Below the pieces are notes generated by a model that saw only the letters and a program-made list of their open reading frames with translations, searched no databases and was not told the origin of the DNA. From an uncultured Gammaproteobacteria bacterium (lineage in GTDB: Bacteria > Patescibacteriota > Microgenomatia > Daviesbacterales > UBA10151), in assembly GCA_964522265.1 (NCBI GenBank), contig CAZFVS010000041.1, positions 1-8,578 on the forward strand: a stretch of 8,578 nucleotides of DNA. The letters run 5' to 3'. Of the stretch, positions 3,231 to 7,154 are shown one piece after another. Position 1 is the stretch's first letter; the number at the start of each line of letters is the position of its first letter. Made by a program: the position numbers and the translations under genes.

Positions 3231-5567
3231 TTAAGGCATGGCAGTTGATTCTAAGTCATATAACAGGGATTCAAAGCCTACAGCCACTTTTTTCCAATCA
3301 TGTTTTTTACTTTCGGTGATTGCCTGTTTTGACAAATATTCAAATTTAGATTTATTTTGCAAAAGTTCAATAGTTTTTAAAGCAAACTGATTATAATCAA
3401 AGGGTTTTATTTTAATAAATCCTTTTCTAAATACCTGTCCTAATATTCCAATATCCCAACCTAAAACAGGCAGTCCTGATGACATCGCTTCCAAGCCGGC
3501 CAGTCCAAACCCGGCTTCATGATCGGTAAAATAAAAAAGTTTTGAACGGGTCAGGTATGTCTGAACTTTGGTGTCAGATAAAGGGCCAAGTATTTGAATA
3601 TTTTTCTGAATTTTATATTCACCGGCTTTTTTGTGCAAAATTTGGATTATTGCCGGATTAGATTGACCGATTATTACCAGTTTGGCCTCAGGTAAATCTT
3701 TGCAGACAAACCTCCAAATTGGAATTAAGTCCAGGATTCCTTTAGAAGGATGCATTCTGCCCAAAAAGACTGCATCGTAAGGTTTGGAGATTGGTTGGGG
3801 AAGTCTTTTTGCATCCCTGTTTCTTATTCCGGCGGTAACCACCACTAATTTATCCTTTTTGAAGCCGATTTTTAGCAAATCATCTCTAAGCATAGGATTT
3901 AGCGCTGCGACCAAATCTGCCTTATGTTTTAAGGCAATCAGGGATATTTCTTGTAGTAAGTAAGAAGCAGTATTAACAAAGAAATTTCCGGGTCTTTTAT
4001 GTGGAGGGGGAGTTAGGTGATGAATTCTGGCAAACCAATGGACTTTTGGGTTAATGAATTTGAATAGATAAGCAGGGATAACATCCGGGAAAACATTTGT
4101 AGAAGAATAAATAATTTGTTTAGGTTGAATTTTAATTAACAACCTGATTGTTGAAAAAATCCGATAAAGATAGGTTATAAAAACAGGAATAGGGGATGGG
4201 TTATTATCAAATTTAGTTTGTTTCAAGGTGATAATACGAACTTGTCTATTGCGCCAATGCCAAGCTGCAATTTTCGGGATAATTACCGTGAGACTGGTAT
4301 TATTCGAAAAATAGACAGACATCTCTTCAAGTAATTTATCACCTCCTGAAATAACCGTACCTTGGGCGTGTCCGGTTTCAATGGCTAATACCTCAATTCT
4401 TTCCACAGATGATAAAATCATACTTTCCAACTGTTTGGTGTGATTTTCCCAAGATAATCCGTTTTGTATTGTTTGCCAGGCATGCTTGCCCATAGATCGG
4501 GCGATATCAGGATGGGAGATCAGGTATTTGAGAGGATTGAGAAAGTCCTGTACTGAAGCTTTTTTTGGGAAAAAACCGTCTTTTTTATCTTTCAGAATAT
4601 ATGATAACCCGCTTCCAAAGGGCATTATTACAGGACATCCGCACGAAGCTGCCTCAAATCCCCCCAAACCGAATGCTTCAACATTAGGGTGAATCCAGAC
4701 CAGAGCTTCAGAGTATATTTTGATAAGTTGTTTTGGCGGCGTGTCTTTTTTGATAATCACCTTTTTTCCCAAGCGATTTTCTTTTATTTTTTGCCTAAAC
4801 TCAATAAGATCAGATGGATCAGTCCAGTTTCCAACAATCAACAGTGTATTATTTGGTATAAATTTCATTATTTCTAAAAGCAGCTGAGGATTTTTACCCG
4901 ATTCCCACCTGGAGGAGGCAACTATATATTTCTTTCTTATCCTCGGCAATTTGGCTAAAGGTTGAGCTCCAAGCGTTAATATTTCCGGAGTTATTCCGTA
5001 TTTGTTTTGAATAAATGATGAATGTTTTTCAGAGTCAACGATAACGGTTTTTGCATTTTTAACAATTTCCTTTTCCAGATAAAAAAGCATCGGAGATATC
5101 AGCCAAAAGAGATATCTTAATAGCGTATTGGAGTAAACCTTTTTTAGTATATACTCCATAGGATCGTGAATGATTGCTATATAAGGAATCCGATGTCTTT
5201 TCCAAAGAGCCAAAGCTGTCAGGCAAGTTGTTGTTCCGTGGGCAATAATGATGTCGTAATCCTTAGCTTTTATGGATAAGGGAGCAAGATAGGGGCTTAG
5301 CAAATGCAGTGTTGAAAAGAAAGAAAATATGGGAAATTTTATCGAATGCTTAAAAAAAATAGGATATTTATCAGACAGAAATTTAATTTGAATTTTAGGG
5401 AAAAATTTTACAAATTTTAGCTGATAACCTTTTCTCATTAACACTTCTAACCTTGCGTTATGTCCTAATTTATTCAAATGAAGCACCTCATTTGCTGCGT
5501 CTTTTTGTACTCCACCCAGTACCAATTGGTCTATTAAAACTGCAACCTTTTTCTTACCGGAAGTCAT
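3231..5567 (-). CDS. Tandem GT4-GT4 (two GT-B modules) fusion glycosyltransferase, 778 aa
   Basis: There are two complete GT-B modules. Module 1 is about aa 1-388 (nt 4404..5567), with VAVLIDQLVLGG at the N-terminus and EAFGLGGFE (EX7E) at 4653..4679, followed by AASCGCPVI. Module 2 is about aa 389-778 (nt 3234..4403), with IEVLAIETGHAQGTVISGG at its N-terminus and EAGFGLAGLE at 3489..3518, followed by AMSSGLPVL. The ATG at 5565-5567 abuts the stop of the upstream gene at 5568-5570. Confidence 0.85.
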   Translation of the reverse strand: MTSGKKKVAVLIDQLVLGGVQKDAANEVLHLNKLGHNARLEVLMRKGYQLKFVKFFPKIQIKFLSDKYPIFFKHSIKFPIFSFFSTLHLLSPYLAPLSIKAKDYDIIIAHGTTTCLTALALWKRHRIPYIAIIHDPMEYILKKVYSNTLLRYLFWLISPMLFYLEKEIVKNAKTVIVDSEKHSSFIQNKYGITPEILTLGAQPLAKLPRIRKKYIVASSRWESGKNPQLLLEIMKFIPNNTLLIVGNWTDPSDLIEFRQKIKENRLGKKVIIKKDTPPKQLIKIYSEALVWIHPNVEAFGLGGFEAASCGCPVIMPFGSGLSYILKDKKDGFFPKKASVQDFLNPLKYLISHPDIARSMGKHAWQTIQNGLSWENHTKQLESMILSSVERIEVLAIETGHAQGTVISGGDKLLEEMSVYFSNNTSLTVIIPKIAAWHWRNRQVRIITLKQTKFDNNPSPIPVFITYLYRIFSTIRLLIKIQPKQIIYSSTNVFPDVIPAYLFKFINPKVHWFARIHHLTPPPHKRPGNFFVNTASYLLQEISLIALKHKADLVAALNPMLRDDLLKIGFKKDKLVVVTAGIRNRDAKRLPQPISKPYDAVFLGRMHPSKGILDLIPIWRFVCKDLPEAKLVIIGQSNPAIIQILHKKAGEYKIQKNIQILGPLSDTKVQTYLTRSKLFYFTDHEAGFGLAGLEAMSSGLPVLGWDIGILGQVFRKGFIKIKPFDYNQFALKTIELLQNKSKFEYLSKQAITESKKHDWKKVAVGFESLLYDLESTAMP

Positions 5568-7154
5568 TTAGTTCTTTTTTTTGTCTAATTTTAAAACATA
5601 GATTTCCCCAAATTGACGCTGGGAAGAGAGGGAATATCTTTTAAAAATCATATTTTCAAATTTTTCTCTTTGTATTTCATGAACTTTAGATTTAATTTCA
5701 ACCACCCAAATTGTTTGATCGTTTATTCGTTCCGGGTTGACAGGATTATAGTCTAATAGACGATTCATTGTCCTATTTGTATATACTGTTTCGTTGTTAG
5801 AAAAGTGATGTAATCCGGGCATTATATACGAGAAGTAGTTGTAAGTAGTAATCTCAGAATGGATGACAGATTGGCCCGGAGTAGTGTTATTGGCTAAGTA
5901 ACTGTCCAGTTGCGAAACATTTGAATAAAAATATTTAGCCATCAGTATCAGAGCAACAATGGGAAATAAGAAATACACAAGAGCAGTCCTTCTAAGATTA
6001 TTTAATGCTATTGCAATCAGCAGATAAAATGGTATTGAAAAAAGTATCAATGATCTGAATCCAAATACAGGTAAGTTTAATAGTGAAAAAATAATTAATA
6101 CAGTATGAGATATCAAAATAGTAGTGATTAAAAATTTCTTTTGTGAGTTATCCACCGCAGCAGAGCTGTTGGGTATTCGCACGCAGAATGAACTACCCTG
6201 CAGCAGAGCTGACGGGGTATCCTTCGGAAAGTTCTTCTGTGAACCATTCATCCCCGCATCGAAATGCGAGGTATTCTGGTTCAAGAATAAACCATAGATT
6301 GCGATCAGTGTTGTAAGTACAGCTAGAGAAATAAGAGCTGTATTTACTGGATTAAGCCGGTAATAGGGATAGAAGTTGGTTAATTGAGCGAGGTTGAGAG
6401 GAAATGAATAATTTATAGGTATGGATATTATTTTAAAAATCGTTACAGTCGGTAGAATTTCCCTGGGCAAGCGCTCTTGGTTTAAAAATGCATAATAAAG
6501 AGGCAGCGTTGTAATAACGGTGGAGAGATAGATTACAGCAAATTGTTTAAAGATTTTTGATCGGATACCTCTTGTTAAGAAAAGATAAAACCCAAAGCAA
6601 ATACCCAAAACCGGAAATAAATAATAGGTGTAATTGCCGATAAGCATGGAAGTAAATAAAAGTAATTTGTGTTTTGTCGAGTTGACCTTTAACAATTCCC
6701 AGAAATAATAAAAAATTAAAACGCTTATCAAAATTGATAGCGAGTACATCCTGACATTTATGCTGAAATATATTAAAGCCGGCGAGAAACAAAAAATAAG
6801 CGATGCTAACAGCCCCACTTTGGTATTAAATATAGATCTGCCCAACCTGCCTGCAAAAAAAATTGATGTAGCCCCGATAAATGCAGTTACCAGCCGAATA
6901 TAAATATAATTATGGGTGATTAAATTTAGGAAATGCAGTACAATTTGCCACAACGGTGGCCATGCGCTAATTGTTCCCTGAATCATCGGAATCAGAGGTT
7001 TTTTGGTAATTAATAGTTGGAAAGTTTCATCTCCGCCATCAAGTGGCAAAATAAGTGCAAATACCAGCCTTATTAAAAATCCCAGGACAGATATAATCAA
7101 TAAGTATTTGGTAAAAAGTGGTTTTCTGATTTGCAAATTCTTATGAATATTCAC
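5568..7154 (-). CDS. Polytopic GT-C fold membrane glycosyltransferase (PMT_2 / GT39 / ArnT-like), 528 aa, carrying an anomalous in-frame insert
   Basis: A basic N-terminus and TM1 are followed by a first-loop acidic motif, LPLDGGDETFQ. Multiple hydrophobic helices follow, then a C-terminal soluble domain of about 110 aa. It is clearly homologous to the adjacent ORF (PPL..H, IRL, IFN.K, SP.L.YFS, R.Y, FRS/LRS..NN blocks). The apparent start is GTG at 7152-7154, 5 nt from the upstream stop. The stop is TAA. Confidence 0.8.
   Translation of the reverse strand: MNIHKNLQIRKPLFTKYLLIISVLGFLIRLVFALILPLDGGDETFQLLITKKPLIPMIQGTISAWPPLWQIVLHFLNLITHNYIYIRLVTAFIGATSIFFAGRLGRSIFNTKVGLLASLIFCFSPALIYFSINVRMYSLSILISVLIFYYFWELLKVNSTKHKLLLFTSMLIGNYTYYLFPVLGICFGFYLFLTRGIRSKIFKQFAVIYLSTVITTLPLYYAFLNQERLPREILPTVTIFKIISIPINYSFPLNLAQLTNFYPYYRLNPVNTALISLAVLTTLIAIYGLFLNQNTSHFDAGMNGSQKNFPKDTPSALLQGSSFCVRIPNSSAAVDNSQKKFLITTILISHTVLIIFSLLNLPVFGFRSLILFSIPFYLLIAIALNNLRRTALVYFLFPIVALILMAKYFYSNVSQLDSYLANNTTPGQSVIHSEITTYNYFSYIMPGLHHFSNNETVYTNRTMNRLLDYNPVNPERINDQTIWVVEIKSKVHEIQREKFENMIFKRYSLSSQRQFGEIYVLKLDKKKN
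6147..6276 (-). repeat. GC-rich, repeat-built, hairpin-dense ~130-nt block inserted in-frame in the GT-C gene. It is a candidate RPE/MITE-like element or embedded structured RNA.
   Basis: By hand count, 69 of 130 nt are G+C in 6151-6280, against 12/50 in 6101-6150 and 18/50 in 6281-6330. A perfect 12-mer, GCAGCAGAGCTG, occurs at 6157-6168 and 6200-6211. The heptamer G(G/T)TAT(T/C)C occurs at 6147, 6172, 6216 and 6270. The 12-mer is translated in two different frames (NSSAA versus SALLQ). The adjacent paralog has only a short loop at the equivalent position. Confidence 0.55.
6252..6271 (-). other. 8-bp hairpin capped by a UUCG tetraloop in the sense (minus-strand) transcript
   Basis: The minus-sense RNA reads CCUCGCAU-UUCG-AUGCGGGG. 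It forms seven Watson-Crick pairs plus one G-U pair (6269/6254). That G-U becomes an A-C mismatch on the plus-sense RNA, which weakly favours minus-sense function. I folded it by hand and did not compute an energy. Confidence 0.5.

Follow-up and report, generated by a model that had tools for sequence, protein, structure and literature searches.

The question raised by this locus is how a GC-rich, internally repetitive block has come to lie within a gene for a membrane glycosyltransferase of 528 amino acids (aa) without interrupting its reading frame. The locus belongs to a stretch of 8,578 nucleotides (nt) of contig CAZFVS010000041.1 (assembly GCA_964522265.1), referred to as the window, in which every long open reading frame (ORF) is located on the minus strand. 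The block is very probably a selfish, non-coding and hairpin-rich dispersed repeat of about 100 nt, specific to Candidatus Daviesbacteria (Microgenomates) of the candidate phyla radiation (CPR). A first-pass annotation, made from the sequence of the window, had described a GC-rich discontinuity at positions 6147-6276, read without stop codons, and had likened it to the palindromic elements of Rickettsia. The discontinuity is real: 69 of the 130 nt at 6151-6280 are G or C (0.53), the highest value of any 130-nt window of the stretch (whole-window G+C 0.339; 130-nt windows, mean 0.339, sd 0.053; next peaks 0.469), and the G+C content falls to 0.22 at 6097-6146 and 0.36 at 6281-6330. The limits were drawn too narrowly, as the repeat-derived DNA occupies approximately 6132-6291. 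The host-gene frame contains no stop codon throughout the block.

The internal repeats recur as first described. Two exact copies of the 12-mer GCAGCAGAGCTG are present at 6157-6168 and 6200-6211; their spacing is 43 nt, and they are therefore decoded in different frames. With up to two mismatches allowed, 0.11 chance matches of this 12-mer are expected, and three matches were reached in none of 200 shuffles. The heptamer G(G/T)TAT(T/C)C occurs at 6147, 6172, 6216 and 6270, each time on the plus strand and inside 130 nt, with 7 matches on both strands of the window against 3.8 expected.

The dispersed nature of the block has been revealed by similarity between otherwise unrelated proteins. The search with the host protein also matched a 333-aa polysaccharide deacetylase of Candidatus Daviesbacteria, with which it shares only the peptide LFLNQNT..AGMNGSQKNFP.DTPSALL. 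At the DNA level, positions 6187-6291 of the window match the deacetylase locus (L001, 10075-10179) over 105 nt with 88.6% identity. All open translations of the block, used as queries, led to six more unrelated carriers (bAvd, PilN, a methyltransferase and three hypothetical proteins), which read the unit from the opposite strand or in a different frame, giving ...MNYPAAELTGYPSESSSVNHSSPQQAARYSGSRI... or ...ENELPRSRADGVSYGKFFCEPF... The 105-nt unit is sharp-ended in all of these loci, and its identity to the window copy is 89-94%. Scanning with DNA patterns identified 19 copies in species-representative genomes, nearly all of them metagenome-assembled genomes (MAGs) of Daviesbacteria with 1-3 copies each, and 31 copies on metagenome contigs, mainly from Rifle and Hainich groundwater; the latter scan used a pattern of domain 2 only, so a full-length parent element would also match. 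After merging sites with identical flanks, a total of 43 distinct insertion sites remain, nearly all in groundwater Candidatus Daviesbacteria, with 80-98% nucleotide identity; the first-pass annotation had proposed such a count of copies. A covariance model (R1) trained on 13 copies recovers exactly these 43 copies (63-133 bits) and nothing further in the 312 kb searched.

Comparison with known sequences outside this group returned little. Rfam 15 gives zero matches to 6100-6300 on either strand even at E <= 10, ARAGORN finds no tRNA or tmRNA in the block, the plasmid and phage collections contain zero matches to the repeat, and viral contigs contain zero matches to the core 20-mer. Six matches of an 18-mer of the 3' end to viral contigs were discarded as chance, since the 18-mer alone matched. 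Within the family, private variants are common to copies of one genome: the 99-nt pair L021/L030 in JAUSHL01, the 106-nt pair L017/L026 in MFDK01, and GCGCGGTATTTTGG, a private feature of the JACPKP01 copies. These variants point to proliferation within genomes and to genome-specific subfamilies. The repeat is also found, at 89-97% identity, in MAGs bearing the title "uncultured Gammaproteobacteria" (CAYMTV01, CAYNFQ01 and CAZWTE01; loci L027, L028, L031 and L032), and these titles probably differ from the true taxonomy.

The host gene itself indicates an insertion. Four orthologues, with 35-38% identity to the host protein, are homologous and in frame on either side of the insert, and all four are without 44 residues exactly at the block, between two predicted transmembrane helices. 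The adjacent paralogue likewise aligns on both sides, as had been noted previously, and the host protein is about 45 residues longer between the aligned parts. The downstream homology is thus kept in frame, again in line with the first-pass annotation. The insert 6132-6291 would be translated as part of the glycosyltransferase. In the AlphaFold2 (AF2) model, which is poor overall (predicted local distance difference test, pLDDT, 54), residues 299-330 form a coil (pLDDT 26-41) between helices 269-298 and 331-359. The host loop would gain about 44 residues, which are probably disordered.

A loop of the usual lineage-specific sort, or a peptide module under selection as protein, would also be in frame, hydrophilic and situated between transmembrane helices. 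The block is, however, missing from every orthologue. Unrelated proteins contain the same DNA in both orientations and in three different frames, and it occurs in intergenic spacers as well; this distribution refutes the protein-loop reading, which is left with next to no probability. The similarity is kept at the nucleotide level, as the first-pass annotation had suggested, with an invariant core of 21-26 nt, zero variation at third codon (synonymous) positions and compensatory changes in the stems. An assembly chimera could be considered because the window contig has been seen once only. Against it, the host homology is in frame on both sides, and the same deacetylase gene carries the unit in frame in at least 10 independently assembled contigs, as likewise does the PilN gene. 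Since the unit is found in frame in many independent assemblies, misassembly of the window locus appears most unlikely.

The anatomy of the repeat at the window locus is summarized in Table 1. The full copy scores 92.7 bits (E 1e-19) with model R1, and the host gene reads its complement, from the third base of G288 to F323 (LFLNQNTSHFDAGMNGSQKNFPKDTPSALLQGSSF). In Domain 1, a closing helix GAACU/AGUUC (6190-6194 paired with 6230-6234) surrounds two hairpins: P1 (6195-6218), which contains the 12-mer copy at 6200-6211, and the small P2 (6220-6228) with a UUCG loop region. Domain 2 consists of one long hairpin, P3. Its outer stem (6235-6246/6277-6287) is invariant; an internal loop separates this stem from an inner stem-loop (6252-6271) that varies among copies, and GGTATTC comes next. 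Homology links P1 to the inner P3 hairpin: both are about 20 nt long (CYCCGCAGYAARCTGCGRGG), with GTATYC after each. The partial copy comprises the 5' strand of P3, the inner hairpin, GGTATTC and the 12-mer copy at 6157-6168, and encodes approximately residues 326-341 (...NSSAAVDNSQKKF). Its alignment score is 36, whereas random window segments reach 21 at most and shuffles 25. As it aligns right beside the full unit, the locus represents one and a half copies in tandem. The repeated motifs that first drew attention to the block are explained by this arrangement, i.e. by the homologous P1 and inner P3 hairpins and by the third hairpin of the CYCCGCAGYAARCTGCGRGG type contributed by the partial copy; the two 12-mers belong to P1 of the full copy and to the P3-type hairpin of the partial copy, respectively. 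The AATAAA adjoining the core may be either a preferred target sequence or the end of the element.

Table 1. Position of the host gene and of the repeat-derived features within the window.
Feature	Coordinates	Strand	Evidence
Host gene, 528-aa membrane glycosyltransferase, PMT_2 (GT-C) type	5568..7154	-	Pfam PF13231, E 9e-6; ORF list
Full conserved 105-nt unit	6187..6291	+ (consensus orientation)	88-94% identity to copies in 7 other loci
99-nt core AATGAAC...GGTTCAAG, net inserted DNA	6187..6285	+	TatD filled site (L019) compared to empty sites (L035, L036)
AATAAA adjoining the core	6286..6291	+	Flank profile of 43 sites; TatD empty site
Domain 1	6190..6234	+	Folding of the window copy
Domain 2, long hairpin P3	6235..6287	+	Inverted repeat I1; consensus folding
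Partial, degraded second copy (unit positions 42-90)	6132..6178	+	Local alignment; secondary BLAST match
8-nt linker GCACGCAG between partial and full copy	6179..6186	+	Read from sequence

The extent of the inserted DNA has been judged from a second locus, L019, where a copy splits the TIM-barrel enzyme TatD and breaks both its Pfam match and its match to the solved structure PDB 1J6O in two. TatD relatives with 75-79% identity are without the unit. Compared to the empty sites of L035 and L036, the filled site contains a net insertion of 99 nt, with the junction ...CA/AATAAAA. After the insert comes Ile-Lys, the counterpart of a native Ile/Val-Lys found in all relatives; the Lys is invariant, and its codon is the final triplet of the 105-nt unit. 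The AATAAA at this site looks like native sequence. The AF2 model of this TatD shows a well-predicted barrel (pLDDT 86-98), from which residues 118-173 emerge as coil (pLDDT 26-31). No empty site was found among the other collected repeat loci.

The same TatD loop contains further insertions. A second palindromic insert of about 57 nt, GTCATTCCGAGCG...CGGCTCAGAATGAC, lies in the loop of the unit (L019 6103-6159, genome MFDK01) and is read as VIPSVSEKSLDSSPSAQND; the three closest TatD proteins have it, and more distant ones do not. The loop of this protein comprises 63 residues in place of 5 in 1J6O. In the TatD relative P0016 (L036), codons ~122-142 form another insert of about 21 residues, SAMLSVNVSEESLNSFQNKSG, whose DNA has a small TTCCAGAATAAATCTGGA hairpin. 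The 57-nt insert suggests that ORFs of these genomes have been colonised by several families of repeats, and the TatD loop seems to be a hot spot for insertion.

Whether other copies also lie inside ORFs had been asked by the first-pass annotation, and a total of 16 do so, in unrelated genes: TatD, PilN, the deacetylase, a methyltransferase, bAvd, an ice-binding-like protein and several membrane proteins. Three frames and both orientations are read through, with 10 copies sense and 6 antisense to host transcription. Among the 38 sites ascertained from DNA alone, 11 fall in ORFs of at least 125 aa, and the others are intergenic, often touching a stop codon. The value of 11 looks low for such compact genomes, on an assumed coding density. 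As most copies are intergenic, insertion into ORFs is tolerated rather than being a speciality of the repeat. Selection after insertion is visible in the unit length, which is divisible by three in 16 of 16 ORF copies and 16 of 27 copies elsewhere (Fisher p = 0.002).

Three further propositions on coding copies have been rejected or dropped. A unit length that is always a multiple of three is ruled out by 11 of the 43 copies, so that the rule holds for ORF copies only. The claim that the unit is built for translation was dropped: three of the six consensus frames are open, 1.05 being expected, which is marginal (P = 0.057). The bAvd host prompted the consideration of a diversity-generating retroelement repeat; the variable repeat of such an element would occupy the 3' end of the target gene, and the copies described here are found at arbitrary positions in unrelated genes and spacers. 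As a side observation, ORF copies are located at the edges of hydrophobic helices in the window, L001, L022, L024 and L056. It may be speculated that a TTTATT target would favour Phe, Leu and Ile codons and hence helix-edge positions.

The conservation of the repeat concerns, above all, its secondary structure. Every copy folds into the two domains, and the outer stem of Domain 2 is an invariant 11 bp. The folding z-score of the window copy lies between -3.8 and -4.8 for either strand, whether folded as RNA or as DNA. In a model-guided alignment of the 43 copies, which was fitted to the model and is therefore biased towards the structure, 96% of cells are paired. Double-sided changes affect 15 of 36 pairs, compared to 4.9 +/- 1.3 in shuffles (0 of 500 reached this value) and at most 5 when the partners are slid. 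Compensatory changes are found in seven of nine P1 pairs and seven of eight pairs of the inner P3 stem, where nearly all covariation lies. Rare length variants grow at the hairpin tips only, with the added DNA forming longer stems by itself: (i) 30-33 nt over the 105-nt unit are added in P3 in L028 (7405-7542) and L034 (5629-5763); (ii) about 55 nt are added in P1 in L063 (4032-4191). The matches of the domain-2 pattern scan of metagenomes are ordinary copies, apart from two variants with a rearranged or expanded P1. The structure of the repeat is therefore under selection.

Such conservation could also be the mark of a functional structured RNA, whether one that regulates or stabilises in cis, a small RNA, a ribozyme, a retro-element or an intervening sequence cut out of the mRNA, which would leave the host proteins unchanged. 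Along with the compensatory changes, tetraloops of the UUCG, CAAG and UAAA types, the confinement of expansions to hairpin tips, and the many intergenic copies adjoining gene 3' ends agree with an RNA role. Against it, G-U and A-C departures are balanced without a clear strand preference, and the ORF copies are divided between sense and antisense as described above. Moreover, no Rfam family matches, and all ORF copies keep the frame and are free of stop codons, which would be needless if they were spliced out. The covariation is equally expected for DNA hairpins needed in transposition, which account for the conserved structure as well as an RNA function does. A functional RNA is considered improbable.

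The junctions of the selfish repeat provide an indication of how it may move. AATA follows 43 of 43 copies; of the two positions beyond it, the first is A in 39 copies and the second in 37. The 5' flank is only mildly A-rich. AAT is present at both junctions, in 42 of 43 and 43 of 43 copies, and no variable direct repeat was detected across the 43 flank pairs. The absence of target duplication is consistent with these flanks and with the TatD site, without being proven by them. The ends, AATGAACTAC... and ...GGTTCAAGAATAAA, have only the subterminal motifs TGAAC/GTTCA in common, at differing offsets, and thus do not form a terminal inverted repeat.

These features resemble the IS200/IS605 insertion sequences (IS) and the palindrome-associated transposable elements (PATEs) that retain only their ends, which have a hairpin near each end, neither inverted repeats nor target duplication, and a constant tetra- or pentanucleotide at one flank (PMC7290912). 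The repeat of Daviesbacteria similarly lacks inverted repeats and evident duplication, has a hairpin near each end and possesses conserved nucleotides abutting one end only, the putative counterpart of that tetra- or pentanucleotide. The two hairpins in question would be P1 and inner P3, which are homologous and both kept by compensatory changes; their recognition is putative. It differs in that no tnpA/tnpB partner or full-length parent was found in the loci searched and in that its hairpins are embedded in larger helices.

By analogy with these elements, the preferred, though tentative, mechanism is mobilization in trans as single-stranded DNA by a Y1 HUH transposase, either an IS200/IS605 TnpA or an enzyme like the REP-associated tyrosine transposases (RAYT). 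It is favoured by the paired end-proximal hairpins, the absence of inverted repeats and duplication, and the constant tetra- or pentanucleotide at one flank. Both hairpins would serve as recognition sites of the enzyme, and the element would enter 3' of TTATT (5' of AATAA in the consensus orientation) without target duplication, as in ends-only PATE derivatives. Copies landing in genes survive only if the frame is kept, no stop codon is introduced and the position is tolerant; for the window copy, the tolerant place is the loop between two transmembrane helices of the PMT_2-type glycosyltransferase.

A classical cut-and-paste miniature inverted-repeat transposable element (MITE), moved by a DDE transposase with a 3-bp AAT duplication, offers a different account of the same junctions. 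The element proper would then be GAAC...CAAG, of 96 nt, and the AAT at both junctions would be the duplicated target; the TatD comparison fits a 96-nt insert with AAT duplication equally well, and the short subterminal TGAAC/GTTCA motifs are present. Real terminal inverted repeats are nevertheless lacking, the offsets of the TGAAC motif being unequal at the two ends; the junction context (A)AAT-A is non-palindromic, in contrast to what is common for DDE targets; a 3-bp duplication leaves unexplained the A that comes next to the 3' AAT, invariant in 43 of 43 copies; and a parent IS was not found in 645 kb of loci or 31 metagenome matches. A DDE origin is regarded as unlikely.

The flank of one subfamily deserves separate mention. 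In four copies at unrelated sites (L011, L014, L027 and L032), the internal GGTATTC is changed to GGTACTC, GGCACTC or GGTGCTC, always together with a change of the flank from AATAAA to AATAGA. Either the flank belongs to the element, or the target co-varies with the internal sequence. Inspection by hand for Watson-Crick pairing between the internal and flank variants found no convincing register. The internal T-to-C change travelling with the flank change hints at self-programming of the target, and a further reading has the repeat as an RNA- or guide-dependent mobile unit of CPR, that is, a cis-acting or excised structured RNA, the host proteins being made unaltered, or a hairpin pair that programs its own target. 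This is thought highly improbable.

Several observations weigh against a selfish repeat mobilized by a Y1 HUH enzyme. The TatD site is the single empty site recovered, and it lies between diverged relatives rather than alleles; a search of metagenomes with a flank-gap-flank pattern did not find the empty allele of the youngest copy (L025). No Y1 transposase was detected by tblastn in 645 kb of Daviesbacteria loci, although the IS200 TnpA query is a weak one, and neither the loci nor the 31 metagenome matches contain an autonomous parent or half-element copies. AATAGA is common to all four members of its subfamily, which fits inheritance with the element and conflicts with a pure target. Read in reverse orientation, TATT adjoins 43 of 43 copies and looks native at TatD, but its variant co-segregates with the subfamily. 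In 22 of 26 copies the fold is slightly better opposite to the consensus orientation, and the strand test is indecisive. Translation of the insert is predicted from its open frame. Finally, the copy number is low in comparison with repetitive extragenic palindromic sequences (REPs) or Rickettsia palindromic elements (RPEs). Confidence in the mechanism is thus limited by the missing transposase and parent, the AAT at both junctions and the co-segregation of AATAGA.

The likeness to RPEs proposed by the first-pass annotation holds for behaviour, as an analogy. RPEs are inserted in frame and read through at tolerated positions, with no known transposase (Ogata et al. 2000, summarised in PMC10969869). 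Both are dispersed repeats of about 100-150 nt that form stable hairpins and inhabit small genomes rich in AT; a good part of the copies lies in frame within unrelated genes, at positions compatible with the fold, leaving the host protein otherwise intact (16 ORF hosts here), and no transposase is known. The repeat described here, in contrast, resides in CPR instead of Rickettsia, has much fewer copies (1-3 per genome), uses three frames and both orientations, is intergenic in about 70% of cases, and consists of two hairpin domains with a conserved AATA junction. It may accordingly be called RPE-like by analogy.

REPs, bacterial interspersed mosaic elements (BIMEs) and REPINs, which pair two REPs in inverted orientation, also consist of short paired imperfect palindromes with compensatory evolution of their stems, often located just 3' of genes, and they are thought to move in trans via a single-copy HUH enzyme. 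They are, however, extragenic, reach hundreds of copies and carry a GTAG head, whereas the hairpins of the Daviesbacteria repeat are direct repeats, its copy number is tiny and insertions into ORFs are common (11 of the 38 DNA-ascertained sites). MITEs with intragenic copies, such as ERIC, BOX, Correia/NEMIS and those of Anabaena, are likewise small and non-autonomous and occasionally form in-frame fusions (PMC10969869). They possess terminal inverted repeats and target duplications, neither of which is evident here. In yeast mitochondria, GC clusters and "byp" elements represent GC-rich hairpins of an AT-rich genome that sometimes lie inside protein genes; these organellar elements are much shorter, and the byps are bypassed by the ribosome rather than translated. 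The present data contain no sign of ribosomal bypass of the Daviesbacteria inserts. In architecture the repeat is nearest to PATE or REP-type hairpin elements, and in behaviour nearest to RPEs.

Some features of the surrounding DNA are also of note. In the window, a 778-aa GT4-type gene (3231-5567) adjoins the PMT_2 gene (5568-7154), with stop and start abutting at 5567/5568, and in two of the orthologues (P0003 and P0004) a GT4 glycosyltransferase and a PMT_2 domain are joined in one protein of 835 aa; this arrangement reflects a gene split or fusion that differs among lineages. A weak Rfam match resembling the glmS ribozyme at 317-461 on the plus strand (20.7 bits compared to a gathering score of 37, E 0.15) overlaps one ORF at its end and, on the opposite strand, the next gene at its start, and is most likely due to chance. 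Directly upstream of the repeat-bearing deacetylase, L001 (8882-9887) contains small ORFs of the GIY-YIG (84 aa) and HNH_3 (156 aa) types that look like homing-endonuclease genes and have no established connection with the repeat.

In the literature searched, of which the coverage is incomplete, no paper was found that describes repeats of this sort for CPR, Patescibacteria or Daviesbacteria. The repeat is a new family of an established kind of element, in a lineage from which none had been noted. It extends to CPR, with their tiny genomes of about 1 Mb, the colonisation of genes in frame by selfish palindromic repeats that is best known in Rickettsia. If the RNA- or guide-dependent reading were true, such a unit would move in genomes otherwise almost without transposases. 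For annotation, the GC-rich inserts of 33-45 residues in Daviesbacteria proteins (...AGMNGSQKNFP..., ...MNYPAAELTGYPSESSSVNHS...) represent read-through of the repeat and not functional motifs, and they can fake similarity among unrelated proteins, as in the match between the host protein and the deacetylase. With its 43 sites and clear subfamilies, this small family is usable for the study of element movement and of the positions at which proteins tolerate insertions.

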